Shown here: piece after piece, positions 21,494-37,645 of the stretch
Layout: each line of letters begins with the position of its first letter
Position numbering within the stretch: position 1 is the stretch's first letter
IMG/VR virus record: IMGVR_UViG_2901984674_000003
Reading direction: 5' to 3' (one strand)
DNA from: a virus
Lineage: Duplodnaviria; Heunggongvirae; Uroviricota; Caudoviricetes
DNA: 64,000 nt
Notes under the pieces: model-generated
What the model saw: the letters and a program-made list of their open reading frames with translations, nothing else
Told to the model about the DNA's origin: nothing
The model's database searches: none
Translations under genes and position numbers: made by a program

Positions 21494-21496
21494 TTG

Positions 21497-22046: not shown

Positions 22047-22074
22047 AACTATTTCCTCTTATTGTAGGCTGCAA

Positions 22075-22335
22075 TGCCTTATTATATAAACTCCGTCAAC
22101 AGTAACCACCTACTAAAGTAGGTAACTTGTAGTAATACAAGTTTTGTTGTCTAGACTAAGTTCTTAGAGAACTACGTTATTTCAGTGATCATACCTAGAA
22201 ATGGTACCCTAGTTTCTAGCTCTATGAAGGCTCTGTAAACAAGCATAAGGTTAATGTGCTAGTCAACCTTGTAATAAGCTGAAATAACATTGTCGAAGGG
22301 TAACCACATGTATTTATTAACTCTGATAAATACGT
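22075..22335 (+). ncRNA. Orphan IscB omega-RNA-like scaffold (copy B) with no adjacent iscB ORF
   Basis: About 70% identical over about 240 nt to the region immediately upstream of iscB at 42370-42633. Shared blocks include CGTCAACAG(T)AACCACC(T)ACTAAAGTAGGT..CTTGTAG.AATACAAGTT and CGAAGGGTA(A)CCAC. The 5' flank (guide position) differs. Confidence 0.6.
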
Positions 22336-22378
22336 GATAAGGTCATTAATACCTTATATACTCCTTAAAATATTTGGT

Positions 22379-22443
22379 TGGCACGCATGGTTGCTATAAT
22401 AGTGGTTCGATCCCACTTGTGCTAATAGGGTGTAATAGCCCTA
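22379..22443 (+). ncRNA. tRNA-like minihelix plus hairpin (family 1, copy f)
   Basis: TTGGCAC gcatggttgctataat AGTGG-TTCGATC-CCACT t GTGCTAA, then TAGGGtgtaataGCCCTA. Confidence 0.5.
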
Positions 22444-22483
22444 ATGGTTGTATATTACTCCTTTTTAAAAAGTTACTTATAGG

Positions 22484-22549
22484 CTGGCACACATGGTTGT
22501 CTTGCAACAGTTCGATTCTGTTGGTGCCAATTGTAGCATTAAGCTACAA
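22484..22549 (+). ncRNA. tRNA-like minihelix (family 1, copy g)
   Basis: CTGGCAC acatggttgtcttgc AACAG-TTCGATT-CTGTT g GTGCCAA. Confidence 0.45.
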
Positions 22550-22627
22550 ACTCAAAACTTTTTCTCTTTAGAGTAATAAAAAAATTACTCTAACTAACAT
22601 AACTCCTTGATTTAATATATGATTTGG

Positions 22628-22696
22628 TTGGCACGTACGGTTACTTTATGGTAGTTCGACTCTACCAGTGCTAATTGCCTTTGGTAAAACGAAGGC
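22628..22696 (+). ncRNA. tRNA-like minihelix plus hairpin (family 1, copy h)
   Basis: TTGGCAC gtacggttactttatg GTAG-TTCGACT-CTAC ca GTGCTAA, then GCCTTTggtaaaacGAAGGC. Confidence 0.5.
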
Positions 22697-22761
22697 TAAA
22701 ATAACCCTTCTTATGGGGCAACAAAAATATCTTTCCTTTATAAGGTTTTTCTCTCAAATAG

Positions 22762-22831
22762 GTTGGCACGTACGGTTGCTTCTATAGTGGTTCGACTCCG
22801 CTAGTGCCAATAGGTTAGGGTTAATCCTAAC
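22762..22831 (+). ncRNA. tRNA-like minihelix plus hairpin (family 1, copy i)
   Basis: TTGGCAC gtacggttgcttctat AGTGG-TTCGACT-CCGCT a GTGCCAA, then GGTTAGGgttaatCCTAACC. Confidence 0.5.
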
Positions 22832-22993
22832 CGCCTACCTTATGTTATTTTTGGTGCTGGACTTTGCCTCCTGTACAAGGCTATGAAAAAAGTCAAAACG
22901 AACTGTTAAACAAACTAAGGCTGTACACCTGACAAGAGTGGGTGTTTGCAAGACAGTTCCTTGTATTTCGTTAGTTGGCCTTTGGAAATACAG

Positions 22994-23059
22994 TTGGTAA
23001 CACGGTTGTGACGTCAAGGTTCGACTCCTTGTTTACCAATAGGGCTAAGATAAGCCCTA
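22994..23059 (+). ncRNA. tRNA-like minihelix plus hairpin (family 1, copy j)
   Basis: TTGGTAA cacggttgtgacgt CAAGG-TTCGACT-CCTTG t TTACCAA, then TAGGGCTaagataAGCCCTA. Confidence 0.5.
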
Positions 23060-23084
23060 AATAAATCATAACATTAATTCAAGG

Positions 23085-23156
23085 TTGGCACGCATGGTTG
23101 CTATAATAACGGTTCGATTCCGTTAGTGCCAATAGCCTTTGCCAACGCAAGGGCTA
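23085..23156 (+). ncRNA. tRNA-like minihelix plus hairpin (family 1, copy k)
   Basis: TTGGCAC gcatggttgctataata ACGG-TTCGATT-CCGT ta GTGCCAA, then TAGCCTTTGccaacGCAAGGGCTA. Confidence 0.5.
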
Positions 23157-23215: not shown

Positions 23216-23277
23216 TAGCGATGTAGCTTAACGGTAGAGCAAGGCATGGGATACAGGTTCGACTCCTGTCATCGCTA
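23216..23277 (+). ncRNA. tRNA-like element (family 2, copy l): acceptor stem, D-arm and T-arm present, but the anticodon arm is collapsed to 13 nt. Fused to scaffold S2.
   Basis: TAGCGAT g TAGCTTAACGGTAGAGC aaggcatgggata CAGG-TTCGACT-CCTG tc ATCGCTA, followed by 'ttg' and then AAGGACGCTTG. Confidence 0.55.
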
Positions 23278-23280
23278 TTG

Positions 23281-23441
23281 AAGGACGCTTGTTCTTGACA
23301 GCTTGGTAAACATCTCTAACCTCTGCATAATCGCAACTTGCATTAGTTAGTTAGCGATTATGTAAGTCTAAAGAGTTCCCAAGAAGCTTATGTCAAAGTT
23401 AAATATAGGTTTTGAGCCTAGTTGAAAGCATAAGCTAAGAC
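23281..23441 (+). ncRNA. Scaffold S2 plus a single degenerate repeat (GGTTTTGAGCCTAGTTGAAAGCATAAGCTAAGAC). The guide position runs into the RBS and start of ORF 23462.
   Basis: Paralogous to S1, S3, S5 and S6. The lone repeat ends at 23441 and is followed by TAAATGATTATATCAAGGAGGTGGTT, which is the 5'UTR and GTG start of the next gene. Confidence 0.5.
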
Positions 23442-23461
23442 TAAATGATTATATCAAGGAG

Positions 23462-24217
23462 GTGGTTAAAATCATTACTCGAGATTATGCAATCAAAAAA
23501 TTCAACGCAATTTTAAACAATGTTAATAACGGTGGCACTGACGTATATGAAGTAACCAGTGCCAATATTTTTAGCTTATCTAAGGCTTTAAAATACATCA
23601 ATCAAGTAGATCCTAACACGGTTTTGTGGCAGCATACACCAACGCATCACGTAGCTTGTGTGTACGTAAAACAAAACACAGGCTTTGCTTATAACCGAGA
23701 TTATTTAGACTTGATTGCTAACGGTATCGACAGTGAAGAAAAGTTTAGAGAAGCTTGGCGACAAAGGAATGGCAAAAATACGAGGGGGCATTTTCCTGCA
23801 ATTGAAAAGAGTGCTACTAAAAGCCAACGAGTTAAGCATGAATCTTACATTGTTGCTGACTTAAATTCAGAAAATCCTAACTCTAAGATTCCAGGTAGCC
23901 TAAGTCCTAATCACGTTGATAGAACACACTTAATTTCATCGCAGATTACAGGCATTGAAAGACACAAGGGTTTACTTATTGATTTTGACAGTTGGCTAAA
24001 CCGTACACCAATGAACACGTTTGAAACTTACATTTTACGTATGTCAAACAAGCAAGACATTATTTGGTTAGCGTTTGTTTGGAGAGAAAACGATGGTTTA
24101 CATTGGAAGTACACAATGCTAGATAACCAAGGTACGATTCTACGTGAACGAGAATGGATAGACGATCGTTGGACTTACATTTGGAAATACGACCCTTATC
24201 AAGAAAATATCGACTAG
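23462..24217 (+). CDS. Hypothetical protein, possibly a non-specific nuclease-like fold (weak)
   Basis: 251 aa with a GTG start after an AAGGAGG RBS. VDRTHLISSQ...LN loosely resembles the DRGH motif of EndA/NucA-type nucleases. Low-confidence assignment. Confidence 0.4.
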   Translation: MVKIITRDYAIKKFNAILNNVNNGGTDVYEVTSANIFSLSKALKYINQVDPNTVLWQHTPTHHVACVYVKQNTGFAYNRDYLDLIANGIDSEEKFREAWRQRNGKNTRGHFPAIEKSATKSQRVKHESYIVADLNSENPNSKIPGSLSPNHVDRTHLISSQITGIERHKGLLIDFDSWLNRTPMNTFETYILRMSNKQDIIWLAFVWRENDGLHWKYTMLDNQGTILREREWIDDRWTYIWKYDPYQENID

Positions 24218-24232
24218 AAAGAAGGTTTACAT

Positions 24233-24505
24233 ATGAGTTCAAATGAAATCAAAAAAATTGCTGATGAAACTACTAAATTACTCCAAGACGCAGGCTACGA
24301 AGAAACTTTAATGGTACTTAGAAAAGGCGAAAGAACTATGATGGAAGGTCAACTAAGTCCTGAAACAACTATTAGGGTTATCACATCTTTGTTTGAACCA
24401 TTACACGAAGAAGTAAAAATCTTAATCGCAAGTTTGTTACTTGATAATTTAGGCATTCATGACTTGTTTGATGAAGATGATGAAGAAGACGATGACGAAT
24501 ACTAG
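24233..24505 (+). CDS. Small protein with a poly-acidic C-terminus (DEDDEEDDDEY), possibly a DNA-mimic or immunity-like protein
   Basis: 90-aa ORF, 15 nt after the preceding gene. Confidence 0.4.
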   Translation: MSSNEIKKIADETTKLLQDAGYEETLMVLRKGERTMMEGQLSPETTIRVITSLFEPLHEEVKILIASLLLDNLGIHDLFDEDDEEDDDEY

Positions 24506-24520
24506 AAAGGAAGTTTTAAT

Positions 24521-25588
24521 ATGACTAAAACTAACATTGAAGGAACATTTACAAAAGTATCAGATACATTAATTGAAGATGAAAAATACAAGGACTTAAG
24601 CGGTCTATCAATCTTGTTATATTCACTTTATGCAAGACGTTTAACTTGCTCTATTAATAGCGCTAAAAATGGAAATAAAGATTTTGTTGATGAAAAAGGT
24701 AATCCATACATTATCTTCACTAATGAAGAAGCAGCTGAAAAAGTACGTACAACTAGCAGAACTGTATCTAAGTTACGTAAAGAGTTAGTTAACCATGGCT
24801 TAATCAGTGTAAAAAGACTTGGTTTAAAGCATTACAAAATCTATGTGCATGAACCACAAGCAAGCGTTCAAAAGAAGACTCAAAGTACTGATAAGAGTAG
24901 TAGTAACAACGATATTAACAACGTGAATGAAGACCTGGTTGAAATTATCGACCAGTACGTGAGTGAAGATAATTCATTTACAGGCATGAAAAATAATCCT
25001 ATAAGTGAGAAAGACTCTAAGAGAGATATATATAATAATACAAATGAAACATATGAATCAAATCCTAACTTACAAAAAATTAGCGTTCAACCTTCTCCTT
25101 CTTCTATCGACTCAAAGGTAGATTATAACGTTAATAAAACAGCTATGTTAGCTTTAAGAAGTAGAGTAGCTAACGTTTTAACTCCTGCTGTATGGGGTAG
25201 AGTTGAAGTTTTAGCTCAAGGTGATTATAAACAAGCTAAGTTTATTGTTAACACTATCTTTAAAGCTAAAAGCCAAGTAACTAATAAATTATTGTCTAGT
25301 TCAAACTGGTTATACAATCCTGCAAGTCAAGAAGCTACAAGATTTGAAACTAACAACTTGTTAATCAAGGGTTTAGAATCTGCATTAATTAGAATGACTG
25401 AAATTATTTACAAAGGTCAAGAAAAGGTTAGAAACACTGAAAGCTTTATGTATTCTTACATTCGTAACAACATCGCTAATAGCATTAAGACATACTTGTC
25501 TGACAACTTTGAATTAGCTCAAGATGAACTGATTGAAGTCAATAGCTTAACTAGTTTTGGAACTAAACCACAATACGCTGTGGCTTAG
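24521..25588 (+). CDS. repA: Plasmid replication initiator, RepA_N family
   Basis: The N-terminus LSILLYSLYARRL...DEKGNPYIIFTNEEAAEKV...SRTVSKLRKELVNHGLISVKR fits the RepA_N winged-helix consensus of Firmicutes plasmids. Confidence 0.55.
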   Translation: MTKTNIEGTFTKVSDTLIEDEKYKDLSGLSILLYSLYARRLTCSINSAKNGNKDFVDEKGNPYIIFTNEEAAEKVRTTSRTVSKLRKELVNHGLISVKRLGLKHYKIYVHEPQASVQKKTQSTDKSSSNNDINNVNEDLVEIIDQYVSEDNSFTGMKNNPISEKDSKRDIYNNTNETYESNPNLQKISVQPSPSSIDSKVDYNVNKTAMLALRSRVANVLTPAVWGRVEVLAQGDYKQAKFIVNTIFKAKSQVTNKLLSSSNWLYNPASQEATRFETNNLLIKGLESALIRMTEIIYKGQEKVRNTESFMYSYIRNNIANSIKTYLSDNFELAQDELIEVNSLTSFGTKPQYAVA

Positions 25589-25608
25589 GTTAGTGTTGCC
25601 AAAAAGAG

Positions 25609-25803
25609 GTGATTTATATGGGTTTAGAAAAAGCTATTAAACATGGAAAAGAACATAGAAAGTCTTATTATGGGGCAAAAGCTGTAGACCAAACTTGTCG
25701 CAATCACGGTTCTTGTCCTTGGTGCATGGGTAATCGACTATACCATAGACGCAAACTAGAACAAGCTGCTAGTGACAGCGTTAAAGATTATTTAGTAAAG
25801 TAG
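25609..25803 (+). CDS. Small Cys-rich (zinc-ribbon-like) protein
   Basis: 64 aa containing CRNHGSCPWC. Confidence 0.35.
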   Translation: MIYMGLEKAIKHGKEHRKSYYGAKAVDQTCRNHGSCPWCMGNRLYHRRKLEQAASDSVKDYLVK

Positions 25804-25811
25804 GTGAGATT

Positions 25812-26363
25812 ATGGAAATTAAGACTCAAACTACTATGGCTGTAGCTAACTTTGCCATTGAATTAGCAATCAAACAAAAGCAAGATCTAAGCTATCTCAA
25901 GCTTTGTGAAGTCTTATTTTTCTTGCAAGGCTATTACCTGGACAAATACCAACAACCACTAATAGATTGTGTGTTCAAAAGTAATGTTCACGGTGTAATT
26001 AACAAAGAAATTATTAGTGAGTTTAAATTCTACGGTCCAGGTAATATCAAAAGCCCTAAAATCAACCTTGATTTTTCGAGTTTTTCTTTATTGCACGGTG
26101 GCGAAATTAAGAGTTATCAAGAAGAAGTAGATTTACCTAAAATTCAACTAGAAGAGTTACAGAAAGTTACTCAGACCTTAATTTCTAAGCCAAGTTGGCA
26201 GTTAGGCAAAGTTATCATCAGCCATGGAACTCACAAAGATCCTCTTGTTAACGAACTTAGCGAAATATTGGGACATAGAACATACGAATATGCAGAATAC
26301 ACTAATTTTGAAATCGAAGAATGCTTTGTTGATAACAAAAAGTGGTTGCTCTCAGTCATTTAA
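25812..26363 (+). CDS. Hypothetical protein
   Basis: 183-aa ORF. Confidence 0.45.
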   Translation: MEIKTQTTMAVANFAIELAIKQKQDLSYLKLCEVLFFLQGYYLDKYQQPLIDCVFKSNVHGVINKEIISEFKFYGPGNIKSPKINLDFSSFSLLHGGEIKSYQEEVDLPKIQLEELQKVTQTLISKPSWQLGKVIISHGTHKDPLVNELSEILGHRTYEYAEYTNFEIEECFVDNKKWLLSVI

Positions 26364-26384
26364 GAAAGATCTAACTGAAGGGAG

Positions 26385-26753
26385 ATGGTAAAAATTGCAA
26401 CATATAAAGAAGTAATTAATTATTTGAACTATTTAGACATGGGTGCAAAAAAAATTAATGAGATTGATGATTTCGAAAATGGGACTAAACCAATAGGAGA
26501 ATTATTACTGAATTATAGTCAATCTATAGATTTTGGAAATGGTAATACTTATATAAGTGTTATAGAAGAAGGACTATATAACATGACATATGGGAAAAGA
26601 GCTGAAAATGTAGAAGAGGGGTTTTCTAAGTTCAATGTAGGGGTTGAACGTTATAGAAAATACCTTGCTAAATCATGGTGGCAGTTTGGTGGAGGAATAG
26701 GGAAACAAAAACCAATATCAGAAGTACCCATGGTAACTAAGATTATTTTTTAA
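26385..26753 (+). CDS. Hypothetical protein
   Basis: 122-aa ORF. Confidence 0.4.
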   Translation: MVKIATYKEVINYLNYLDMGAKKINEIDDFENGTKPIGELLLNYSQSIDFGNGNTYISVIEEGLYNMTYGKRAENVEEGFSKFNVGVERYRKYLAKSWWQFGGGIGKQKPISEVPMVTKIIF

Positions 26754-26774
26754 AAAAGGAAAGGGAGTGCTATA

Positions 26775-27257
26775 ATGCACAATTTAAGTTTGAAATCGAT
26801 GCCTAATGCTGCTCTGGATTTTGAATCTGGTAATGGTGATATTAAGCAAAGAAAACTAGCTATTATTCAGGCAAAAAAACGTAGTTTGTACTTAAAAAAG
26901 ATATTAATAGGTTTTTTTGAAACAATTCATATAAAAGTTAAATCAATCAAAGTTAACGGAAGTTTATGCCAATATACATTTGTAATTCCACATTTAGGGG
27001 GATTAATTGATTTTAAAAAGTTAAATATAGTTATTTCAGACAATTTTCCTAAAAGTACAGTTCGTATATGGATGAAAAACGGAAAATTAATTATAGAATT
27101 AAGCAATATGATTAATATTCCTGTATTATTTAAAGATTTAGTTTTAATGAATGAAGAGTATGACGTAGTGAATACGGTGATAGGGCAAGATGGTTCGGAA
27201 ATAGTCGTAAGATTATCCAATTTGTTAGACCTGTTACTACAAATACACAAAATTTAA
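26775..27257 (+). CDS. Hypothetical protein whose 3' ~70 nt overlaps the iscB remnant in another frame (deletion/fusion junction)
   Basis: 160-aa ORF. Its last ~25 codons are encoded by DNA homologous to iscB codons 42-66, read out of frame. Confidence 0.4.
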   Translation: MHNLSLKSMPNAALDFESGNGDIKQRKLAIIQAKKRSLYLKKILIGFFETIHIKVKSIKVNGSLCQYTFVIPHLGGLIDFKKLNIVISDNFPKSTVRIWMKNGKLIIELSNMINIPVLFKDLVLMNEEYDVVNTVIGQDGSEIVVRLSNLLDLLLQIHKI

Positions 27258-28432
27258 CTTTAGGAGTAGATGCTGGTTTTCACTTAGGATTATCTGTTGT
27301 TGGAAACCAACGTGAATATTATGCGTCAGAAAGCTTAAGAAAGTCAGAAAAAGATCGAATTACTAGTCGAAGAGAATTAAGACGTACTCGAAGAGGACAT
27401 TTAAGATACCGTCAAGCTAGATTTGATAATCGTAGACGTAAAGACGGCTGGTTAGCTCCTAGTATTCAACACAGATTAGATTTTACAATTAAAGAAATCA
27501 AACGTTTATATACGTTTTTACCCATTACTAATTTAGTCGTTGAAGTTACACCATTTGATAATCAAAAACTAGCTAATCCAAATATTAAAGCCTGGCAGTA
27601 TCAAAAAGGTAAGATGTATGGTTTTAAGACGATTAAGGATTATCTACTAGCTAGAGATAACTATCGTGATGCTTTAGATGGTAAACAATACCCAGCTAGT
27701 CAGTTAAGAGTCCATCACTTAGTTCAAAGAAAAGATGGTGGTTCTAATCAGCCAGATAACTTAGTTTTATTGTCAGATATTAACCACAATCAAGCTAATC
27801 ACAATAATGGTGTCTTAGCTAAATTAAGACAAAATCGGCAAAAGACGATTGATTATCGTGGAGCTTATTTTATGAGCATTTTAGCAACAAGATTAAGCAA
27901 TTATTTTGATGAATATACGACAACTCAAGGTTATCTAACCGCTAACCTAAGACAAAAGTATAAGATTGAAAAATCTCACTTAAATGACGCTTTTGTGATT
28001 GCTGGTGGAACTGATACAACCCTTAGAACAAACAATGTTTATTCGAGACAAAAGTTAAGGAATAATAATCGTATATTACAGTTGTTTTATGACGCTAAGT
28101 ATATTGATTGTCGCGATGGTAAACAAAAAGCTGGTAAAGAGTTAAGTTCAGGGAGAACTAGACGATCCCAAGAGCTTAATTATGACAATTTAAGACAATT
28201 TAGAAAAGAAAAAGTTAAAAAGGGTCGTGTTTCGATTAGAAGAGGTCATTATCAATTAAGACCACATGATGTTGTGTTAAATACCAGAACTAACAGGATT
28301 GAAAGAGTCAAAGGAGTTAATAGTAGAGGAAAGGGCATTGTTTTCCAAAGCGGTAAATATGGCACAGTTAAAAATGTAATTAGCTTATATCATGTAAATG
28401 GAATGTTGGAAAAGAAAATGGAAAATATTTAG
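27190..28432 (+). pseudogene. iscB: 5'-truncated IscB paralogue. It lacks the N-terminal PLMP domain, has no start codon and has no upstream omega-RNA.
   Basis: About 85% nucleotide identity to iscB 42740-43992 from the ARWFGNSRK codons onward. It retains RuvC-I (GVDAGFHLGLSVVG), the HNH-like segment (VHHLVQRKDGGSNQPDNLVLLSDINHN) and RuvC-III (HLNDAFVIAGG). The ORF track only calls the part from the internal Met (27614). Confidence 0.7.
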
Positions 28433-28526
28433 TTTGTTTAGGCAAACTAGAGCTTATATTCCACGACTAAAATCGTAGGTTTTACGTCCGTTTGTAATAA
28501 AAATTAATCAAAAGGAGTGGTGATTA

Positions 28527-29345
28527 ATGGACAAAAAGAAGTATATTAAACGCTTAAAGAAAGATAAAAAACAAGAGCAAAAGCAAGCTGTTCCTAAAAT
28601 TCCAACCGCTGATAAGCACCATTCACCGTTTGGTTTTATCCTAAGTGGTTACAAGGAAGTCAAGCAAAATGCTAATCAAGCTAGAATAGCTACAGCTGCA
28701 CTCTTACTACAAACAAAGCCTGAAAAAAGCTCTAGTCGCTTTGTTTTACAAGATTACGTCAACACTAAATTAGACGTATTTGCAATCGTGTCTGACATTA
28801 AAATCGACCCTGAGGATCCATGGAATAGTCAACTGTTAGTTGAACAATCTTATTTTAGTGAATACAAGTATACTCAGGGCGCAACTAGAGTTGATATGTT
28901 CAGGAAACTAGCCACTCATTTATGGATTAGGTTTTCTGATATTACTAACTTTGAAAATAGCGATGATCAAACTATTTATATCTCAGTTGGCGATACAATT
29001 CATTTCACAGCGATGGTTGGCACTTATCGTGGCCGAATTGAACATGGATTCTACGCTACTAAGTTTGGTTTAAAAGACATTACGATTGAACAAGTAGGTA
29101 TGCCTTACGTTAAAGATGACGATCCACAAGAGAACATACTCATCTGTAGCAACTATCAACGTAAGGGTGATTGGGTAGCTAAACTAAAAGTTAACCCTAG
29201 AAATTTAGAAGTTAAAAAGAGCCGATACTTAAGCTATTACGAACGCTTTAAATACTTTGAAAACGGCTTGGAGGGAGTGAAGAAATATGGGTTGGTACCA
29301 AATCGACGTGGTAGACGGAAAAGTGCATGGGAACATTATAGTTAA
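28527..29345 (+). CDS. Hypothetical protein
   Basis: 272-aa ORF, followed by two hairpin terminators (29450-29480 and 29483-29527, the latter with a T-run). Confidence 0.5.
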   Translation: MDKKKYIKRLKKDKKQEQKQAVPKIPTADKHHSPFGFILSGYKEVKQNANQARIATAALLLQTKPEKSSSRFVLQDYVNTKLDVFAIVSDIKIDPEDPWNSQLLVEQSYFSEYKYTQGATRVDMFRKLATHLWIRFSDITNFENSDDQTIYISVGDTIHFTAMVGTYRGRIEHGFYATKFGLKDITIEQVGMPYVKDDDPQENILICSNYQRKGDWVAKLKVNPRNLEVKKSRYLSYYERFKYFENGLEGVKKYGLVPNRRGRRKSAWEHYS

Positions 29346-29482
29346 TGCTAATTCCATCGAAGAAGCTGAAGCAAAAGTTGCTAAAATGCAAAAAGAAAAG
29401 TAGGAAGAAGGACTAAATATAAGTTTGTGAGATGCTTGGTTATAAATAAAAAAAGTTCCTAGAAAATAGGCTAGGAACAAGA

Positions 29483-29527
29483 CTATATACTGATAAACCT
29501 GCACTTTCAGTATATAGTCTTTTTTTA
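29483..29527 (+). terminator. Rho-independent terminator
   Basis: AGACTATATACTG...CAGTATATAGTCT stem followed by TTTTTTT. Confidence 0.6.
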
Positions 29528-29751
29528 ATTAATCAAGTTTTTCTGGTTTTGATAATACAAGTAATATACAATATGTGTATGTTATGAAGTAGGACTAGCT
29601 ACCCTATGGATTAACTTAGTGAATTGTTGTAAGGCTGAACACCCCCTATTAGTAAATGCTTTAAATTATAATTGGAAGGAAGAAGAGTAATGGATTGCAA
29701 AGGAGAAATAAAAAAAACGAGGCTATCAAAAAAATATAAAATTGAAAGACG

Positions 29752-32700
29752 GTGACACAATTGCTAACAAAACCAGAAGATAAAAAAGTAAATGATGCAA
29801 TTAATAAATTAAACTCGCAAGAGTACGTAGGAGTTTTAAATAATTTAGCATCATCTGTAATGAGGCAGACAATCTCTGCACCAAATGAAGCAACAGTTGC
29901 CTCTATATTTGAAAGAGAGTTGTACTATTTTGTTAAAAAAGAATTTGATATTACATTAAATATAGAAAAAGAAGTGACTTCCCAAGACCTTGCTATCCAT
30001 AATTTCAAAGGAAGAATTGATGCTATTACGACAAATTTAGTTATCGAGTATAAAAAGCCAGAGAAGTTACGCAAAGACAAAGATATAAGAAAAGCTCAAA
30101 CGCAGTTATCAGACTACTTAAAACAATTGCGGAAAAATAACGAAAACTATTTTGGAATTATTACTGACGGAAGTTTTTATGTCAGTGTCTACTTTATAAA
30201 AGGCAGTTTAAAGTATGATGCGATACGTCAAATTGACGGAGCTTTTTTCATTACTTTGATAAAATCAATTTTAGGCACTAATAAGAAGCAATTAGTTTCT
30301 CGGAATATTATTGACGATTTTTCTCTTGAGGGTCACTCAGTTAGTGAACTTAGTAATCTTCAAAAAGAGTTGTTTAGATGCTTAAATAATGAAATGAAAT
30401 CTGAAAAGGTACTAATGCTATTTGACGAATGGATGGACATCTTTCACTTAAGTTTTAATGATGATGGGAAAAGTAATACGATTATGGAGCGTAGGGATTC
30501 TCTTTCTAAGGTTTTAGGTGTCCCTATCGAAAATAACGAACAAGAGTACCAAGGACTTTTTGCGTTGCAAACGGCATATGCCATTTTGGTTAAATGCTTT
30601 GCCTTAAAAATTATTCCTAAAATTGGTTTCAACAGTGATATAGTTTATTTTTCTGATTTATTGGAACAATCACCTAATAATATAAAAAAACTATTTTCTC
30701 AAGTTGAAGATGGCTACACTTTTAATGCGAGCAATATAATCAATCTTATTGAAGGTGATTTCTTTTCTTGGTATCTTGATGATTCTATTTGGTCAGAATC
30801 AATTGCACAATCAATTAAATCAATCCTTGTTAAGATAAACTCTTATTCAGACGCATCTTTATCATATCAGTTTGAAACACTAGATTTATTCAAAGAACTT
30901 TATATGAATGTAATGCCCCAACCTGTACGAAAAGCTTTTGGGGAGGTCTTTACTCCAGATTGGTTGGCTGATAATGTTGTTACAACCTGTTTAGAAATGA
31001 TTGATAATGAACAATGGACTTTTCTTGACCCAACATCAGGTTCAGGCACTTTTGTTTTTAAGGCAATTGAAAAAATTGTGGAAAGATTACTTCTTGATGG
31101 AAGAAGTAATAAGTATATTTTAGAACAAATACTCTCTCGAGTACACGGTATAGATTTATCACCGTTATCTGTTCTAACAGCTAGAGTTAGCTTTTTATTA
31201 GCAATTAGACCATTTATTGATGATAATAATATGGAAATCGAGATTCCAATATATCTAGGTGACTCTGCCCGTCTACCCTTAATAACTAAATTTAACGATA
31301 AGTCTTTTGTCTCATATAGTATTGCCACACGTCAGGGAGACATTAATTTAACATTACCATTGAGCTTTGTTGAATCTCCTGATTTTGTTAGAACTGTAAG
31401 ACAATGGCAAATGTTAGTAAAAGCAGAACACGTTGATTTACTTTCTAACGCAATAAAAAAGCAATTTGCTTGCGATGAAGATATTAATCATTTTGAAAAG
31501 GAAATACTATCATTCAGTAATCAATTAGTTTCGCTTCATAAAAAAATTGGGACGGAATATGGATTAAAGTTATTACAAACTTTATTTTACCAGCACGGAT
31601 AAAGAATATTGATATTATTGCTGGTAATCCGCCATGGGTTAAATGGGAAAATCTTCCCTCAATGTATGCAAATAAGATTAAGAATGTTGCTGGTGAAAGA
31701 GAACTATTTTCTAAAAAGAATAAGGGCCTAGGTGGGGGAATTAACTTAAATCTTGCAGCCCTTATATCGAATGTAACCGCAGATAATTGGTTAAGTAATG
31801 AAGGGGTTCAAGCGTTCTTGATGCCAGATACTTTCTTAAATTCCGATTCATATGAAGGTTGGAGAAATTTCCCAAGTACAAAAGAAAATAGTATGTTTTT
31901 AGCTAGAATAGATGATTGGTCAAATTCAGGTTCTCCATTTAAGCCAGTACAAGAGAAGTTTTTAACGTATTTTATAGTTAAAAATCCGTATAGTTCAACT
32001 TTAGTTAAGTATAATAAAAAATTTCCTAAAGGAATGAATATTCTTGATATCAATTCAAATAAATCATGGAGAGATGTAAAGAAATACTTCTCAAAAGAAA
32101 AAGGTTTATTGGTGCAATTATCCGATTCTAGCAATAGGTTTAGTAGAATATATAATGCTACATTGGATGATGTTGAAAAGCTGAAATTATTGTATGGCCA
32201 AAATGATTATAAGCCACGCCAAGGGGTTGAATTAACACCTAGAGAAGTTTACGTTTTTGAAAAAGATGATGATGGAACTTATCGAAACCTTGATATAAAA
32301 GGTACAAAAATTAAACCCAATCATTTTGAAAAACTCAAATTTGAAAAAAATATTATAAGACCATTGCTTCAAAGTAAACAAATAGGCGCATTTTCCATAA
32401 AAAATAGAGATAACATTCAATATGGTTTCTATCCATACGACGAAAAAGCAGATATAATTCCGATGGAAGCTTTGGCTGATAAATATCCTGCGATGTTAAA
32501 TTATCTCCTTGAACAAAAAGAGTTTATTGATAAGCAATCTGAAAGAAGTAAAACTATGTCCAGAGGTAGTGAATTTTATGCTCTCTCCAAAGTCGGAAGT
32601 TATACATCTTTTAAATATGCAGTTGCATTTCGGGATAATACTAAGATGGTGGCATCGTTTATAGACAACTCAAAAGATGGAATGATACCTGTAAAACATG

Positions 32701-33005
32701 CACCTTTTATTAGTGTCGATAAAAATGGTATACCCTTAACTAAAGATGAAGCAAAATATTTAACTGGGGTTATGAATATGCCAATAGTAAATACGTATTT
32801 TAAGACGACTTATTCTGATCGTTCATTTAGTATTAATTTTGATATGATGATACCAAAATATAAAAAGAATAAATTTCAAAAAGAAATTGTTAAATTAGTT
32901 ACATTTGCTTTGAATAGCAATAATGAGAACGAAAAAAAAGAGATTTCTAAACAAATTGAAGTTTTATATTTTGACATGTTAGATGAAATGGGAAAAGGAA
33001 GGTAA
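29752..33005 (+). pseudogene. Type IIG (MmeI-like) restriction-modification enzyme split into two ORFs (29752..31602 and 31542..33005) by a -1 frameshift at an A7 tract (31540-31546)
   Basis: ORF1 carries a PD-ExK-like motif (RIDAI...VIEYK) and SAM-binding motif I (FLDPTSGSGTFV). ORF2's frame opens at 31542 and encodes IIAGNPPW (motif IV) upstream of its first ATG (31662). Inserting one A in the A7 run fuses the frames into ...HKKNWDGIWIKVITNFILPARIKNIDIIAGNPPW.... Confidence 0.6.
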
Positions 33006-33029
33006 GTTTTTTATACCATTTGAAAAAAT

Positions 33030-33066
33030 ACCGAGAACTACGAAAATTAGTTCTCGGTATTTTTGT
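33030..33066 (+). terminator. Rho-independent terminator after the R-M gene
   Basis: ATACCGAGAACTAcgaaaatTAGTTCTCGGTAT followed by TTTTT. Confidence 0.65.
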
Positions 33067-33494
33067 ATGCTCTTTGTGTAAACTGGTATATAGTTCCCAT
33101 AAAAAAAGCTAATCATGATTTTAAATAATCATAACTAGCTTATACACCACAATAGTCTTAAACATTCACGCTTGAGGGCAAGCAGGTCGCAACTGTTTGT
33201 CCTCTTTTCATATACAATAATACATGGCATGGATCCAAAAGTAAAGAAAAACAAAAGAAGATATACAAGCTATTATAGACTTTGCTAACAAACAACTAAA
33301 AAAACGATACTAGAATGTTATTAACACATTGCAGTAGTTTATGTTAAAATAGAACTAGCAAAAAACAGTTAAGGCTCCTTAATGTTTGTTTTGCTGTTGA
33401 AAAAGAAAGTCACATCTAGGGTTACCTAAGCTTGTGGCTTTTTTTATTTTTTAACTTTTTTGAATTTTATTTTAAAAAAGTATACAAAAACATT

Positions 33495-33523
33495 TGACTT
33501 AGAGTGTGAGATAGTGTATCATA
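33495..33523 (+). promoter_or_regulatory. Sigma-70-type promoter driving the tRNA-like/scaffold/array locus
   Basis: TTGACT, a 17-nt spacer, then TATCAT, about 135 nt upstream of tRNA-like element m. Confidence 0.45.
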
Positions 33524-33657
33524 ATAAACGTAAGGCAAAGGGTTAAGCCTACAGGGACATCAGTAAACTACATGTAAGCCTCTATCGTTCCTGTAAGCAT
33601 TAGCACAAGCCTTATAATCTTAACTTTATCTTTATTCATTTATGTACATTTTATGTG

Positions 33658-33707
33658 TAGCGATGCCAAACGGTAGATCAATGCAGGTGCAATTCCTGCC
33701 ATCGCTA
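33658..33707 (+). ncRNA. tRNA-like minihelix (family 2, copy m; acceptor plus T-arm), fused to scaffold S3
   Basis: TAGCGATG ccaaacggtagatcaat GCAGG-TGCAATT-CCTGC CATCGCTA, followed by 'ttg' and then GAGGACGCTTG. Confidence 0.5.
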
Positions 33708-33710
33708 TTG

Positions 33711-33852
33711 GAGGACGCTTGTTCTCGACAGCTTGGTTAATATCTTTGACCTCTGTATAATCGCAAATTGCATTAGTTTGTTTACGATTATGCAAGTCTG
33801 AAGAGTTCCCAAGAAGCTTATGCCACAATTAAATACAGGTTAGAAAATAACG
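33711..33852 (+). ncRNA. Scaffold S3 (tracrRNA/omega-RNA-like)
   Basis: GAGGACGCTTGTTCTCGACAGCTTGG...GAGTTCCCAAGAAGCTTATG...AAATACAGGTTAGAAAATAACG. Confidence 0.6.
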
Positions 33853-34284
33853 GTTCTGAACCTAGGCTAAATGACATAGGTTGAAGACTTACGGTAGAAT
33901 GTATCTTCAATTTTTCTAGTTCTGAACCTAGGCTAAATGACATAGGTTGAAGACGCTACTACTCATTGTGAACTTAAACTGGTTGTTCTGAACCTAGGCT
34001 AAATGACATAGGTTGAAGACAGTACTAGCGGCTCATCTGCATATATACTAGTTCTGAACCTAGTTGAATTGACATAGGTGTAAGACCATTGAAGTTCGTA
34101 TGGTGGATATCATCTAGTTCTGAACCTAAGTTAAATAACATAGGTGTAAGACATAGGTTTAATGATTGCTCCAATGGTTGAAGTTCTGAGCCTAAGTTAA
34201 ATGGCATAGGTGTAAGACTCACGTTTATGTGAGTGATTATAATTCACAGTTCTGAGCCTAAGTTAAATGACATAGGTGCAAGAC
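33853..34284 (+). CRISPR. CRISPR-like array A3: 7 direct repeats of 36 nt separated by six unique 30-nt spacers, at an exact 66-nt period
   Basis: Repeats start at 33853, 33919, 33985, 34051, 34117, 34183 and 34249. Consensus is GTTCTGAACCTAGGCTAAATGACATAGGTTGAAGAC, with 1-5 nt drift in distal units. The repeat contains the palindrome AACCTAGGTT and a potential CCTAGG/CATAGG hairpin. Spacers are non-repetitive and differ in GC content from one another. Confidence 0.85.
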
Positions 34285-34314
34285 TGAAATCATGGGCTTA
34301 ATTAAAGTCAAAAC

Positions 34315-34376
34315 AACGATGTAGCTCAATGGTAGAGCAAAGCGAGGCGACGTAGGTTCGATTCCTACCATCGTTA
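34315..34376 (+). ncRNA. tRNA-like element (family 2, copy n; D-arm and T-arm present, anticodon arm reduced to 13 nt), fused to scaffold S4
   Basis: AACGATG TAGCTCAATGGTAGAGC aaagcgaggcgac GTAGG-TTCGATT-CCTAC CATCGTT a, followed by 'ttg' and then GAGGGTGCTTG. Confidence 0.55.
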
Positions 34377-34379
34377 TTG

Positions 34380-34505
34380 GAGGGTGCTTGCTCTTCACAG
34401 TTTGGTTAACATCTTCGCAAACAAAGTTGCTGATTGCATTTCTTTGTTGAAGAGTTCCCAAAAAGCGCTGATAGCACAAATAAAGACGTCCATTGTGGAA
34501 GACTA
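34380..34505 (+). ncRNA. Divergent scaffold S4 plus one degenerate repeat (...CCATTGTGGAAGAC), immediately upstream of tnpB-3
   Basis: GAGGGTGCTTGCTCTTCACAGTTTGG...GAGTTCCCAAAAAGCGCTG is paralogous to the other scaffolds at about 75% identity. Confidence 0.45.
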
Positions 34506-34544
34506 ATGTAGTGTAGTCAGCTGAAAGACTATACATAAATTACG

Positions 34545-36026
34545 TTGGTGTTTAAAAAGGAGTTGGAAAAAATGGAAGAAAAAGTTTTAGAAAGTCGTAG
34601 AATTAGAATTTATCCTACTAAGGATCAACAAGCATATTTAACGTTTAATATGTTTGCTAATATCAAGATGTGGAACGCATTACTAGCTGAAGTTTATAAG
34701 CCAGTTAGTGAGTTAGATGAAGTTCAAGCTTTACCTAGAAACAAACAAAGTAAAGAAGTTTATAAACGCATTGAAAGAATGTCATGGGAAGAGCAACGTG
34801 ATTTGTTCAAAGGTTTACGTGGACTTTCGACTAAGGCTATTTACGATGCTGATGAAACTGTGTTTGAAAGTGGTTGGACTTTAAAAGACGCTGATACTAG
34901 CATGTATAGTTACACTTTACGTACTTTAAAAACAGCGATGAGCAACCATTTGAAAAACCCTAGACACTTTGGTATTCCTAGGTTTAAGACAACAATGGAC
35001 GTTGAAAATCAAGGTAGTTATACCTCAGGCGCTCATGTTTGTGAAATCAGTGAAGACGGCAAGTACCTTAGAGTAGGTAAATTGAAAAGATTTAAGTTAG
35101 GCTTAATTGAGATGGCTAATCACTATCCTAGTGACGGACGTTTGTATAAAGTAACAATTAAGCATGAATCCAGCGATACTTGGTATGTATCATTTGTGTT
35201 TGAACAAGCTGAGCATACAGTAAAACGTCCTAGAACTGGTTTAGCAGCTGGTATTGACTTAAACGTAACAGGTAACAGTCATATTGTTTTACAAGATGGT
35301 ACTAGATACCAATTGCCATATGACAAAATCAGAAAATTAGAACAAAAGATTGAAAAAGAAAACGTAAAACGTAGTCGCAAGTATGAACAATGGAAAAAAG
35401 AGGTTGCAATCATTGAAGAAGACAATAAAAAATCCTTAATTCCAAAGCATGTTCCTACTTTAGCCGAACGTAGCAATTACCAAAAGAACAAAAAGAAGAT
35501 TGCTAAGTTACATTTACGCATTAAAAACTTGAAAAAAGACTATATTAAAAAAACATGTTCAAAGCTTGCTAATGAATATGATGTAATCGTTATGGAAGAC
35601 CTAGCTGTTTCAGATATGGAAAAGAATAAATACCGTGCTAGAGCAATCACTAGATCAAACTTCCGTGAAATTAGAGATACGCTTACTTATATGATGGACT
35701 GGGCTGATAAAAAGATTGTGTTTATTGATCGTTGGTCACCAACTTCAAAGCGTTGCCATACTTGTGGTTACATTAAGCACAACCTTAAATTAAGCGACCG
35801 TAAGTGGACTTGCCCTATCTGTAATTCTCACCATGATCAAGACATAAACGCAGCTAAAAACATCTTAGATGAAGGCTTAGACTTGCTAGACAAAATGAAT
35901 GATTCTTGCAAGAAATGTGGGCATGAGCGTACGGTTATTACAACAGACGAAAAGTGGACATGTACAAAGTGTGGAGCTAAAAATAAAACCACACCTAAAG
36001 AAGAAAATAGTAGCGATGTAGCCTAA
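34545..36026 (+). CDS. TnpB/Cas12-like RNA-guided nuclease (493 aa) flanked on both sides by scaffold plus CRISPR-like array modules. Candidate type V-U-like effector.
   Basis: The TnpB-type N-terminus (RIRIYPTKDQQAYL...), RuvC-I (AAGIDLNVTG), RuvC-II (VIVMEDLAV), zinc finger CHTCG...CPICN and RuvC-III (HDQDINAAKNI), plus an extra C-terminal CKKCG...CTKCG finger. Its stop codon lies inside tRNA-like element o. Confidence 0.85.
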   Translation: MVFKKELEKMEEKVLESRRIRIYPTKDQQAYLTFNMFANIKMWNALLAEVYKPVSELDEVQALPRNKQSKEVYKRIERMSWEEQRDLFKGLRGLSTKAIYDADETVFESGWTLKDADTSMYSYTLRTLKTAMSNHLKNPRHFGIPRFKTTMDVENQGSYTSGAHVCEISEDGKYLRVGKLKRFKLGLIEMANHYPSDGRLYKVTIKHESSDTWYVSFVFEQAEHTVKRPRTGLAAGIDLNVTGNSHIVLQDGTRYQLPYDKIRKLEQKIEKENVKRSRKYEQWKKEVAIIEEDNKKSLIPKHVPTLAERSNYQKNKKKIAKLHLRIKNLKKDYIKKTCSKLANEYDVIVMEDLAVSDMEKNKYRARAITRSNFREIRDTLTYMMDWADKKIVFIDRWSPTSKRCHTCGYIKHNLKLSDRKWTCPICNSHHDQDINAAKNILDEGLDLLDKMNDSCKKCGHERTVITTDEKWTCTKCGAKNKTTPKEENSSDVA

Positions 36027-36070
36027 CGGTAAGGCAAGGTAACAGATGCAGGTTCGACTCCTACCATCGT
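36009..36070 (+). ncRNA. tRNA-like element (family 2, copy o) overlapping the last 6 codons and stop of tnpB-3; fused to scaffold S5
   Basis: TAGCGATG TAGCCTAACGGTAAGGC aaggtaacagat GCAGG-TTCGACT-CCTAC CATCGTTA, followed by 'tag' and then GAGGACGCTTG. Confidence 0.55.
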
Positions 36071-36073
36071 TAT

Positions 36074-36215
36074 AGGAGGACGCTTGTTCTCGACAGCTTG
36101 GTAAATATCTTTAACCTCTACAGTATCAGTTAGTTAATCTAGCAGAAAGATATTGCAAGTAAGAAGAGTTCCCAAGAAACTTATGTCGAAATTAAATATA
36201 GGTTAGAAAACAACG
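36074..36215 (+). ncRNA. Scaffold S5, in the position expected for the tnpB-3 omega-RNA/tracr
   Basis: GAGGACGCTTGTTCTCGACAGCTTGGTAAATATCT...GAGTTCCCAAGAAACTTATG...AAATATAGGTTAGAAAACAACG. It is 3'-adjacent to tnpB-3, as omega-RNAs are for TnpB. Confidence 0.6.
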
Positions 36216-36450
36216 GTTCTGAACCTAGGTTAAATGACATAGGTGTAAGACATACTCGTGGTGTCTAATTATAAGACGTTCGTTCTGAACCTAGGTTAAA
36301 TGACATGGGTGCAAGACCGTGCCTTCGATTCCTTCGCTTGGGAGATCGTTCTGAACCTAGGTTAAATGACATAGGTGTAAGACGTCTCAGGAGGAAAAAA
36401 TCAAAAATATGAGTTCTGAACCTAGTTAGAATGACACATAGGCGCAAGAC
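36216..36450 (+). CRISPR. CRISPR-like array A5: 4 repeats (36, 36, 36 and 37 nt) with three 30-nt spacers
   Basis: Repeats at 36216, 36282, 36348 and 36414 match GTTCTGAACCTAGGTTAAATGACATAGGTGTAAGAC, and the last is degenerate. Spacer 2 is GC-rich (CGTGCCTTCGATTCCTTCGCTTGGGAGATC) and spacer 3 resembles a gene start (CAGGAGGAAAAAATCAAAAATATGAG). Confidence 0.8.
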
Positions 36451-36479
36451 ATATAGAGGAGCCGATCAAAAAAATATTC

Positions 36480-37094
36480 AACGTTCAAATAACGCTTCAA
36501 GCATAACCGATTGCATAAGGGCTTTAATCAAGTCTTATCGGACATCTGCCTGTAATTCGTAGTAGGTATAGTCTGAGTGATAGCTTAGACAAGCCGAGAG
36601 ATGATTGGTAACAATTATCAAACCTAGTAAAAGCTAGGACGTTTGGTAGGTGTGTGGAAATGTGTGACGTTAGTGCTTTGCTAACCGTTGGCACTGGATA
36701 AAATAGACGCTCACGGTGTGAGAATAACCCATTGGCAGCTTAGTGTGGTAGCTAAGTGATGTGATGGGAATAACCAAAGACAGTGTTTGCCTTGACGTTT
36801 AGGAAACTAAGCTATAACAACGGAAACAAGAACGAGTAGGGTAATGGCATCGAGATTACAGTAATTTCGCTACTGGACTTGAAATCCACATGCGACGATT
36901 AAGACAAATAAAATAATTCTGAATGATTGCCTGAAAGTTGGTACTTATCATAGTAGCCACGTTATATAAAGCAAAAGGAAGTAGCAAGGTAGCTCCTTGT
37001 TGCTCAGACCTTTTGAAACGTTCGCATAATAAGCGGTAGCACATTGTAAGCAGAGTGAAAGCTCGTGCTTGAAGTGTTGTTTGAGCGTTAAATA
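36480..37094 (+). other. About 600-nt ORF-free, relatively GC/purine-rich region between array A5 and scaffold S6. Candidate structured ncRNA or decayed gene.
   Basis: There is no ORF of 60 aa or more on the + strand, and composition differs markedly from the AT-rich intergenic DNA nearby. It occupies the slot where the other units carry a tRNA-like element. Confidence 0.3.
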
Positions 37095-37097
37095 TTG

Positions 37098-37222
37098 GAG
37101 GACGCTTGTTCTCGACAGCTTGGTAAAAATCTCTAGCCTCTACGGTGTTAGCTAGTTAATCTAGCAATAAAGCATTGCAAGCATGGAGAGTTCCCAGGAA
37201 GCTTATGTCAAAATTAAATATA
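37098..37222 (+). ncRNA. Scaffold S6
   Basis: GAGGACGCTTGTTCTCGACAGCTTGGTAAAAATCTCTAGCCTCTACGG...GAGTTCCCAGGAAGCTTATG. It is closest to S1. Confidence 0.55.
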
Positions 37223-37380
37223 GGTTCTAAACCTAGTTGAATTGACGTAGGTGTAAGACCTTAGATTTTTAGGAGTTGTTGTTCTGAACCTAATTGAATT
37301 AGCATAGGTATAAGACGAGGCTGTCTATTTGCTAATTAAATAATAAGTTTTGAACTTAGTTAAATGGCACAAGCAAAGAC
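37223..37380 (+). CRISPR. CRISPR-like array A6: 3 repeats (37, 36 and 34 nt) with 21- and 30-nt spacers
   Basis: GGTTCTAAACCTAGTTGAATTGACGTAGGTGTAAGAC, GTTCTGAACCTAATTGAATTAGCATAGGTATAAGAC and GTTTTGAACTTAGTTAAATGGCACAAGCAAAGAC. Confidence 0.65.
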
Positions 37381-37645
37381 AGGTCATATATTCGTTAATT
37401 TAAATATAATATCAAAATTCCAATCCATAGCTAAATCCAGCTGTGGATCAAGCTTTTTTATTGACAATTGAATGAAAAATAGTAATAATGTAATTGCAGG
37501 TAGAAATACACTGACTACTTTATGCAATGTCGACATGCACGAGGCACCTAGTTGATAGGTGTTTTTTATTTGTTTTTATAAACCTGCCACAATAATAATA
37601 ACCAAACTAAAAGCCACATCTACTTTAGGTGTGGCTCAAATTCTT

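Follow-up and report, generated by a model that had tools for sequence, protein, structure and literature searches.

Anticodon-less tRNA look-alikes as candidate punctuation marks for the guide RNAs of a compact TnpB/Cas12f-like system

How are the guide RNAs of a compact nuclease system cut from their transcripts when almost every guide scaffold begins a few nucleotides behind something that looks like a tRNA? We raise this question for a 64-kb stretch of DNA (IMG/VR record IMGVR_UViG_2901984674_000003, analysed whole and called the window below). It carries a gene for a TnpB/Cas12f-like nuclease of 493 amino acids (aa) at 34545-36026, six copies of a scaffold of about 140 nt and, after each scaffold, 36-nt repeats (consensus GTTCTGAACCTAGGTTAAATGACATAGGTGTAAGAC) with mostly 30-nt spacers. 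A preliminary description of this DNA had proposed that tRNA-like elements fused to the scaffolds act as processing signals. We find that the elements are tRNA look-alikes without an anticodon arm. The best explanation of their placement, probable though by no means assured, is that RNase P and RNase Z excise the guide RNAs at them. Coordinates without a contig name are window positions, and the elements, scaffolds, arrays, nuclease gene, ROOL RNA and promoter- and terminator-like sites all lie on the plus strand.

Scaffold junctions and the structure of the tRNA-like elements

The scaffolds start at 21496 (S1), 23280 (S2), 33710 (S3), 34379 (S4, diverged), 36075 (S5) and 37097 (S6). The first five stand directly behind a tRNA-like element (d, l, m, n and o, respectively) that ends at a discriminator A; next come TT or TA and, after them, GGAGG or GAAGG. 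In its heading the preliminary description had every scaffold fused in this way, where its text counted five of six modules. The lower figure is right, as S6 begins 13 nt 3′ of a ROOL RNA. The preliminary description also took the scaffold start to be invariant, whereas S2 begins with GAAGGAC and S4 with GGAGGGUGC. With 16 elements in 64 kb, the probability of such adjacency by chance is negligible, about 5e-4 for each scaffold. Duplication relates the copies to one another, and they do not count as independent events. Of the 22 scaffolds in the window and two related replicons together, 19 begin 2-3 nt past the discriminator of a tRNA-like element, and the other three come after ROOL. Three related replicons and five metagenome contigs have the same junction. 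The P0002 lineage, whose nuclease is 74% identical, adds two further junctions of the form A-UC-AGAGGG(U/C)GCUUGCUCUUG, and the L064 junctions carry UC.

All 16 elements of the window lie on the transcribed strand. Five are linked to scaffolds, and the other 11 (19263-23132) are followed by plain hairpins. Most copies belong to what we call family 1. Three of these (19263-19308, 19399-19445 and 19500-19541) are each followed by A-UAG and a plain hairpin; seven more, starting at 21984, 22379, 22485, 22629, 22764, 22995 and 23086 (the last running to 23132), are each followed by U(A/U)G and a hairpin; and element d (21447-21493) is fused to S1 through …GTGCTA-A-TT-GGAGGACGC. A third type, with an AAGCAT/ATGCTT acceptor, occupies 21882-21924 and precedes a 10-bp hairpin (z = -5.0 including the hairpin). 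Family 2 comprises l (23217-23277), m (33659-33707), n (34315-34376) and o (36012-36072). Elements l, n and o have a normal D-arm. Element l retains the acceptor, D-arm and T-arm with the anticodon arm cut to 12 nt, and m has lost its D-stem and has an atypical T-loop.

Searching with the Rfam tRNA model (RF00005, gathering threshold 29 bits), we obtained matches to three of the 16 elements, namely l (50 bits), n (52 bits) and o (41.9 bits). These are the three that the preliminary description had called tRNA-like with a collapsed anticodon arm, and the Rfam alignments agree, leaving 6-8 nt where a 17-nt anticodon arm is expected. Neither family 1 nor element m was matched by it even at E<=1, no Rfam family at all matched family 1 at that level, and ARAGORN called no tRNA and no tmRNA in the window. 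The anticodon stem-loop being absent, elements of this sequence cannot decode. They do not look like tmRNA either, since they are contiguous and 42-62 nt long, not a split acceptor with a tag reading frame.

For family 1 we aligned 41 distinct copies, drawn from the window, from three related replicons and from five metagenome contigs, and anchored the shorter ones by N padding. A model of acceptor and T-arm alone left 91.5% of the cells paired, and position 7:66 was never paired. Adding a 3-bp mini D-stem (GCA/UGC, GUA/UAC or ACA/UGU) raised this to 98.1%. The resulting form is 42-47 nt long and has three helices: a 6-bp acceptor, the mini D-stem around its YGGU loop and, after a further 5-6 nt, a canonical T-arm. 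Double-sided changes occur in 12 of the 14 pairs, and compensatory cells number 136, against 33±7 in shuffled and <=21 in slid controls. The acceptor is 100% paired with five of its six pairs covarying, and the T stem 98.5% paired with four of five covarying. G53:C61 is invariant, and the T-loop UUCRAYU is invariant or nearly so. The preliminary description had reduced both m and family 1 to acceptor plus T-arm; this stands for m and falls for family 1, which has the covarying mini D-stem and a GG loop. By its covariation, family 1 is a three-helix miniature tRNA in which the elbow-forming parts are kept and the anticodon arm is missing. We regard the mini-tRNA as a well-supported RNA family missing from Rfam.

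The same substitutions bear on a minus-strand reading, in which the family-1 repeats would be either sigma-70 promoters of the form TTGGCA-18-TATTAT or small open reading frames (ORFs) served by an AAGGAG ribosome-binding site (RBS), the ATG lying in the hairpin loop. Shine-Dalgarno-like motifs and ATGs do stand beside several copies, and three copies match the promoter consensus. However, the copy lengths of 42, 43, 45, 46 and 47 nt break the reading frame, the peptides share only the ESN encoded by the T-loop, many copies have stop codons, and most lack the -10-like hexamer. The substitutions keep RNA pairing, not codons, and we find this reading hardly credible.

Family 2 varies in a different manner. 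Its acceptor variants are compensatory (AGCGATG/CATCGCT, AACGATG/CATCGTT and AACAATG/CATTGTT), and orthologous positions show graded deletions, from 49 to 62 nt. This looks like the reductive evolution of a real tRNA under apparent selection for acceptor, T-arm and elbow only. Against a canonical coaxial acceptor/T stack of 12 bp, family 2 has 7+5 bp and family 1 has 6+5 bp with one unpaired junction base. In family 1 the helix could be extended by U(-1):A73 and G(-2)·U(+1).

What follows the elements is as regular as the elements themselves. Among 63 elements of the lineage, the discriminator is A in 62, the +1 position is U in all 63, and +2 is A or U. None encodes CCA, and the trinucleotide after the discriminator is TAG in 35, TTG in 21, TTT in 5 and TTA in 2. 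All 63 have a hairpin that starts 0-4 nt past the discriminator. In the scaffolds this slot is filled by their own first hairpin, GAGGAC-GCUU-GUUCUY, which begins at +3 or +4 and also covaries: its first pair is G-C, A-U or G·U, and an A-U pair becomes G-C in S4. We therefore read scaffold fusion as a special case of a general module made of mini-tRNA, U(A/U)G and structured RNA. Only 3 nt separate element d from copies b and k, whose cargo is a plain hairpin. Because mini-tRNAs of nearly the same sequence can precede a plain hairpin or a scaffold, and near-identical scaffolds follow family 1, family 2 or ROOL, the two parts are separable modules; the breakpoint falls at the discriminator.

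A breakpoint of this kind could also mean that the elements are decaying tRNA genes, or module boundaries at the DNA level (hot spots of recombination or integration), with scaffold adjacency a by-product of cassette duplication and shuffling. The graded loss of the anticodon and D region at orthologous family-2 positions (49 to 62 nt), the inter-module breakpoints at the element 3′ end and the tyrosine integrases of related phages would all suit such an origin. Compensatory changes in three RNA helices and an intact T-loop would not persist under decay, though, and the location of all copies on the transcribed strand and the invariant +1 position also speak against it. We consider this reading improbable.

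Proposed maturation of the precursor and what weighs against it

A promoter-like site (TTGACT-17-TATCAT, 33494-33522) lies about 135 nt 5′ of element m. A terminator-like hairpin with a T run (37423-37448), the next convincing site past the promoter, is the likely end of the transcription unit. Given these single promoter-like and terminator-like sites, we predict one precursor with the order m, S3, array, n, S4, nuclease gene, o, S5, array, ROOL, S6, array (about 33530 to 37450). We propose that the RNAs of the system are made as long precursors of this kind, with the anticodon-less look-alikes as punctuation marks. Host RNase P would cut at the 5′ end of an element, giving a 3′ end to the upstream CRISPR RNA (crRNA) or mRNA. 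Host RNase Z, activated by the invariant U at +1, would cut after the discriminator A. The RNase Z product should be 5′-P-UUGGAGGAC or UAGGAGGAC, with a UUG or UAG overhang immediately before the first hairpin; the preliminary description had expected GGAGGAC, which is two nucleotides too short. The first hairpin should shield the new 5′-monophosphate end from the 5′-3′ exonuclease RNase J. In Bacillota, a hairpin at the very 5′ end should resist 5′-3′ decay by RNase J1. What the sequences show is the RNA structures with their covariation, the geometry and conservation of the junction, the layout of the transcription unit, and the spacer targets beside a T-rich 5′ motif; co-transcription, both cleavages and the protective role of the hairpin are inferred.

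RNase Z contacts only the T-arm and the acceptor (PMC5449637), and it cleaves CCA-less precursors 3′ of the discriminator. In Streptococcus and Lactococcus, all tRNAs are CCA-less and processed by RNase Z (PMC8549757). A passage of PMC10100781 that cites Pellegrini 2012 reports that a uracil <=2 nt 3′ of the discriminator stimulates Bacillus subtilis RNase Z about 200-fold. The sequences of the elements agree with all of these determinants. At the other end of the elements, the final spacer of array C is exactly 30 nt long and ends flush with the 5′ end of element n, and the final 20-nt spacer of array A abuts the element at 21882. Since terminal spacers abut element 5′ ends, cleavage there would define the 3′ end of the terminal crRNA.

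The tightness of the fusion, at 2-3 nt, would equally suit an element that is never removed. In that case the tRNA-like part would stay on the guide RNA as a 5′ structural domain, where it stabilises or folds the RNA, as in the engineered 'tRNA scaffold', or contacts the nuclease. In keeping with this, the centroid fold sets the scaffold hairpin apart, as a domain of its own, from the tRNA-like acceptor and D-arm. Yet family 1, family 2, element m and even ROOL precede near-identical scaffolds, and such structurally different elements leave no conserved specific contact; moreover, unrelated hairpins follow the same elements. The invariant U at +1 and the missing CCA are features of RNase Z processing (PMC10100781). 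A retained domain is unlikely on these grounds, if somewhat less so than gene decay.

Another possibility is that the mini-tRNAs act in trans, as decoys or sponges for tRNA-binding host factors, defence nucleases, or CCA-adding or modification enzymes, so that release of their neighbours is a side effect. In its favour, the 64 kb hold 16 copies, mostly away from scaffolds. Related phages have odd pseudo-tRNAs and encode RNA repair enzymes of the Pnkp/Rnl1 type, and tRNA islands are also where ROOL and GOLLD RNAs gather (PMC12286853). Without an anticodon arm, however, the elements could not decoy anticodon nucleases, and a function in trans leaves the 0-4 nt spacing of hairpins and scaffolds and the spacers abutting the 5′ end unexplained. 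We give it as little credence as gene decay, and it is compatible with processing, not exclusive of it. None of these rivals explains the covariation, the invariant U+1 and the abutting hairpins and spacers jointly as well as processing does.

The proposal of tRNA punctuation thus draws on the covariation, the absence of CCA, U+1, the single promoter and terminator, the recurrence and the abutting spacers, and it loses ground where ROOL precedes one scaffold type and where relatives show no exact fusion. Several observations weigh against it. A tRNA-like element can be dispensed with, given that S6-type scaffolds have ROOL upstream instead. The 11-bp stack of family 1, with its bulged base and possible extra pairs, makes the cut site uncertain by 1-2 nt, and the T-loop of element m is non-canonical (UGCAAUU). 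In non-scaffold modules the hairpin starts at +1, which may hinder RNase Z. Conservation of the junction among close copies comes partly from shared descent. In distant relatives the scaffold lies 12-35 nt from ROOL or from a mini-tRNA with hairpin, unfused: L006 and L008 (65-70% protein identity) have the order tRNA-Arg, ROOL, 12 nt, scaffold, and L010 (50% protein identity) the order mini-tRNA, hairpin, 17 nt, scaffold. From the unfused order in these three, exact fusion is lineage-specific and tRNA punctuation of the island is the general trait. Finally, RNase P cleavage at element o, 12 nt 5′ of the stop codon, would yield a non-stop nuclease mRNA.

The last point concerns element o (36012-36072), which spans the final five codons and the stop codon (36024-36026) of the nuclease gene, an overlap that the preliminary description had recognised. 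RNase Z acting alone at this site would leave the nuclease mRNA with a tRNA-like 3′ end. Removal of the stop codon suggests a trade-off between mRNA and guide output, by analogy with the way in which TnpB processes its own mRNA. Nety et al. are said to have found the latter in 2023.

Beyond the scaffolds, the device of mini-tRNA and hairpin would be used across the non-coding RNA islands of the plasmid, scaffold fusion being one application. We can extend this further, tentatively and with rather less confidence than we place in guide excision itself. The previously undescribed three-helix mini-tRNAs might be general punctuation in non-coding RNA operons of Lactobacillales megaplasmids and phages. 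Guides, and with them hairpin RNAs, HEARO and ROOL, would then mature through host RNase P and RNase Z and not through the effector or RNase III. Among the products set free, hairpin RNAs that bear CUCCU motifs might have a regulatory role of their own. Genuine tRNAs of more distant relatives likewise precede U and a hairpin. A pattern scan of IMG/VR viral contigs for family 1 returned only the two known related replicons, by which the exact family-1 sequence type seems confined, in that collection, to this plasmid lineage.

The neighbourhood of ROOL is kept in relatives as well. ROOL followed by a scaffold within 12-21 nt is found down to 65-70% protein identity (L006 8639-9330; L008 8968-9660), and in those relatives a tRNA-Arg(UCU) lies directly 5′ of ROOL. 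This RNA may belong to the same processed precursor.

Relation to known processing systems

The closest natural analogue is the TMER of murine gammaherpesvirus 68 (MHV68), and the closest design analogues are engineered tRNA-guide RNA (tRNA-gRNA) arrays and the icrRNAs of Haloferax. In MHV68 TMERs, a non-decoding tRNA-like element and structured hairpins share one transcript, and tRNase Z frees the downstream RNA (PMC4838037); they too are carried in multiple tandem copies by a mobile or viral genome. Unlike the present locus, TMERs are eukaryotic, are transcribed by Pol III from the internal promoter of the tRNA, and carry pre-miRNAs that go on to Dicer. Here the host is bacterial, the promoter is an upstream sigma-70-type site, the cargo is a Cas12/TnpB scaffold with its CRISPR RNA or a simple hairpin, and cleavage is predicted.

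In the icrRNAs of Haloferax, tRNA or tRNA-like units flank the guides, and the cell's own RNase P and RNase Z cut these out without Cas processing (PMC4326828). Engineered polycistronic tRNA-gRNA arrays are built likewise, and the architecture and proposed logic of the present locus match theirs. Those constructs are man-made and use full tRNAs or t-elements. The elements described here are natural and anticodon-less, and they would punctuate a scaffold at its 5′ end and an array at its 3′ end, but not every spacer. Mitochondrial punctuation and MALAT1-mascRNA also use embedded tRNA or tRNA-like structures as RNase P and RNase Z signals that make the ends of neighbouring RNAs (PMC3790967, PMC8457004). 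They differ in domain of life and in cargo, and mitochondrial tRNAs decode, whereas our elements cannot.

To our knowledge, guide ends in known TnpB/Cas12 systems are set by the effector itself or by RNase III. The present system resembles them in its TnpB/Cas12f superfamily nuclease and in the position of scaffold and array 3′ of the gene, which is usual for omega RNA and type V (PMC10691335). tRNA is mentioned nowhere in that survey of TnpB/Cas12 or in the 2026 TranC preprint (10.64898/2026.03.27.714800). The preliminary description knew of no tRNA-like processing modules for TnpB/Cas12 guides, and full-text literature searches for tRNA-like elements with TnpB, Cas12, crRNA or trans-activating crRNA (tracrRNA) agree, returning engineered designs only. 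ROOL and GOLLD RNAs are described as 'often near tRNA islands', an association without an accepted explanation (PMC12286853). As in those phage islands, ROOL occurs in this locus and is flanked directly by tRNA-Arg in relatives; here, in contrast, it holds the slot that tRNA-like elements occupy before the other scaffolds. The mini-tRNA family may help to explain the placement of ROOL and GOLLD in tRNA islands.

We regard the locus as a natural variant of tRNA punctuation and the mini-tRNAs as an RNA family, both apparently new, with processing plausible and strengthened by the comparative evidence, though unproven. If the proposal holds, a natural RNA-guided nuclease hands its guide maturation to the essential tRNA-processing enzymes of the host, an arrangement for which we found no natural CRISPR or TnpB counterpart in the literature. 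Such guide production would be hard for a rival element to block, and nuclease mRNA and guide output would be coupled at one site, element o. For multiplexed guides in Gram-positive bacteria, the mini-tRNAs would serve as natural processing tags of very small size (42-47 nt). The locus would then be a natural forerunner of the engineered tRNA-gRNA arrays, a design that genome engineers took up in 2015, reportedly with the work of Xie et al.

The nuclease system, its replicon and neighbouring features

The 493-aa nuclease matches Pfam OrfB_IS605 and Cas12f1-like_TNB and probably starts at the ATG at 34563. It belongs to a small clade with about 30% identity to ordinary TnpBs. D238, E351 and D433, which are assigned to RuvC-I, II and III by position only, and the zinc-finger residues C404, C407, C423 and C426 are invariant across the clade. 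The system is probably a compact type V or TnpB-derived one that we provisionally label 'TranC-like'. In GTDB species genomes we found no relative of the nuclease, and a scaffold-core pattern gave chance matches only. No cas1 or cas2 lies near the nuclease, scaffolds and arrays.

Scaffold S1 (21496-21636), tracr- or reRNA-like with the 5′ hairpin GAGGAC-GCUU-GUUCUU, is followed by CRISPR-like array A with four repeats (21637-21881). S2 is joined to a single repeat (23280-23441). S3 (33710-33852) leads into array C, with seven 36-nt repeats and seven 30-nt spacers (33853-34314). S4 (34379-34529) has a repeat-like tail, and in its first hairpin, GAGGGU-GCUU-GCUCUU, the differences from the other copies are compensatory. 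S5 (36075-36215) is followed by an array of four repeats (36216-36482) that ends at the ROOL RNA (36483-37083, Rfam 241 bits). Behind ROOL come S6 (37097-37223), the sole copy without a preceding tRNA-like element, and an array of three repeats (37224-37381).

In minimum-free-energy folds, GCUUAUGUCA pairs with UGACAUAGGU and UAGGUU pairs with AACCUA, which would join the scaffold 3′ end to the repeat. All copies are compatible with this predicted pairing, mostly via wobble changes. S2 and S6 continue into their first repeat through a short closed loop, UAGGUU-CUA-AACCUA, like an unsplit reRNA (23400-23441 and 37200-37259). In S1, S3 and S5, 12-14 nt are inserted at that loop, giving a split-like form (21615-21672, 33830-33888 and 36195-36251). 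The later repeats would have to pair with the scaffold in trans, by analogy with the 'RNA splitting' route from TnpB to Cas12.

Three spacers match other megaplasmids of Ligilactobacillus salivarius, one of them pMP1046B at 29/30 and the others pMP118 and a ZLp4b plasmid at 93-97% identity. Two of the three lie in array C, and the pMP118 match is in the array after S5. All three protospacers (L047, L048 and L049), a small sample, have TTTCA, TTTAC and TTTCA directly on their 5′ side. With spacer matches next to a 5′ T-rich motif the system looks like a working one, and 'guide RNA' is a fair term. Comparing the spacers with the window itself gave no match. These matches suggest plasmid-versus-plasmid warfare, in which the arrays of a compact type V/TranC-like system target rival megaplasmids.

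The guide position of S4 spans the RBS and start of the nuclease gene (34530-34570), and that of S2 (23442-23470) extends into the RBS of the ORF at 23462. Guides over RBSs could mean self-regulation, or they could be omega-RNA-like guides read off the flanking DNA. In the metagenome relative L063 (160-260), element n and the 5′ half of S4 are deleted (…AAGAC-TTGGAG-AGTTCCC…), which makes S4 seem dispensable or decaying. Two metagenome contigs begin 4 nt 5′ of GGAGG, and a Logan contig ends inside a scaffold. We rejected a reading of these contig ends as RNA ends and attribute them to assembly breaks at repeats.

The closest annotated relative of the window is a linear 166.6-kb plasmid of L. 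salivarius ZSA5 (NZ_CP123973.1), with 92% identity across 33500-37500, and the window is a piece of an L. salivarius megaplasmid. It has genes for ParM/Alp7A, ParA, a RepA_N initiator and DnaB. Two related replicons are catalogued as viral in IMG/VR; GenBank phages gave no match to the locus DNA, to a large ORF or to the spacers.

In the island of plain-hairpin modules, anti-Shine-Dalgarno-like CUCCU/UUCCUC motifs recur 3′ of hairpins between 19446 and 23216 (for example at 19468, 22052, 22462, 22600, 22735 and 23195). Read on the minus strand, these sites give AAGGAG and then an ATG within the hairpin loop. Indels that break the frame appear to rule out coding. Three family-1 copies read on the minus strand as sigma-70-like TTGGCA/TTAGCA-18-TATTAT (19416-19445, 22396-22425 and 23103-23132), and the -10-like hexamer is missing elsewhere. 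A general role of the hairpins as intrinsic terminators was rejected, a T-rich tail being present in only one. Relatives at 65-71% protein identity have tRNA-sized elements 3′ of the nuclease gene with improbable anticodons (AUC, AUA and a 4-nt anticodon), together with a structured region of about 340 nt of unknown nature (L006 11434-12724, L008 11442-12815 and L068 1715-2310). A gene for Pnkp/Rnl1-type RNA repair (AAA_33, Metallophos and RNA_lig_T4_1) lies near those elements.

Besides the ROOL RNA, the window holds an iscB gene with HEARO RNA, an orphan HEARO RNA and a Transposase-1 RNA by Rfam, and its TnpB-type genes number three (429-1655, 19770-20933 and 34545-36026). The orphan HEARO (IscB omega RNA; 22095-22307) lies inside the mini-tRNA island with no adjacent iscB gene. 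The second HEARO is directly upstream of a 458-aa IscB with RRXRR and HNH domains (region 42371-43992). The Transposase-1 motif starts 32 nt past the stop of the 387-aa TnpB, where an omega RNA is expected (19770-21023). In the related replicon L001, positions 11966-12181 are homologous to 1578-1792 of the window, that is, to the 3′-terminal part of the tnpB gene at 429-1655 and its flank. There this stretch stands directly after the first repeat of the S1 array, which suggests the insertion of an insertion sequence into that array.

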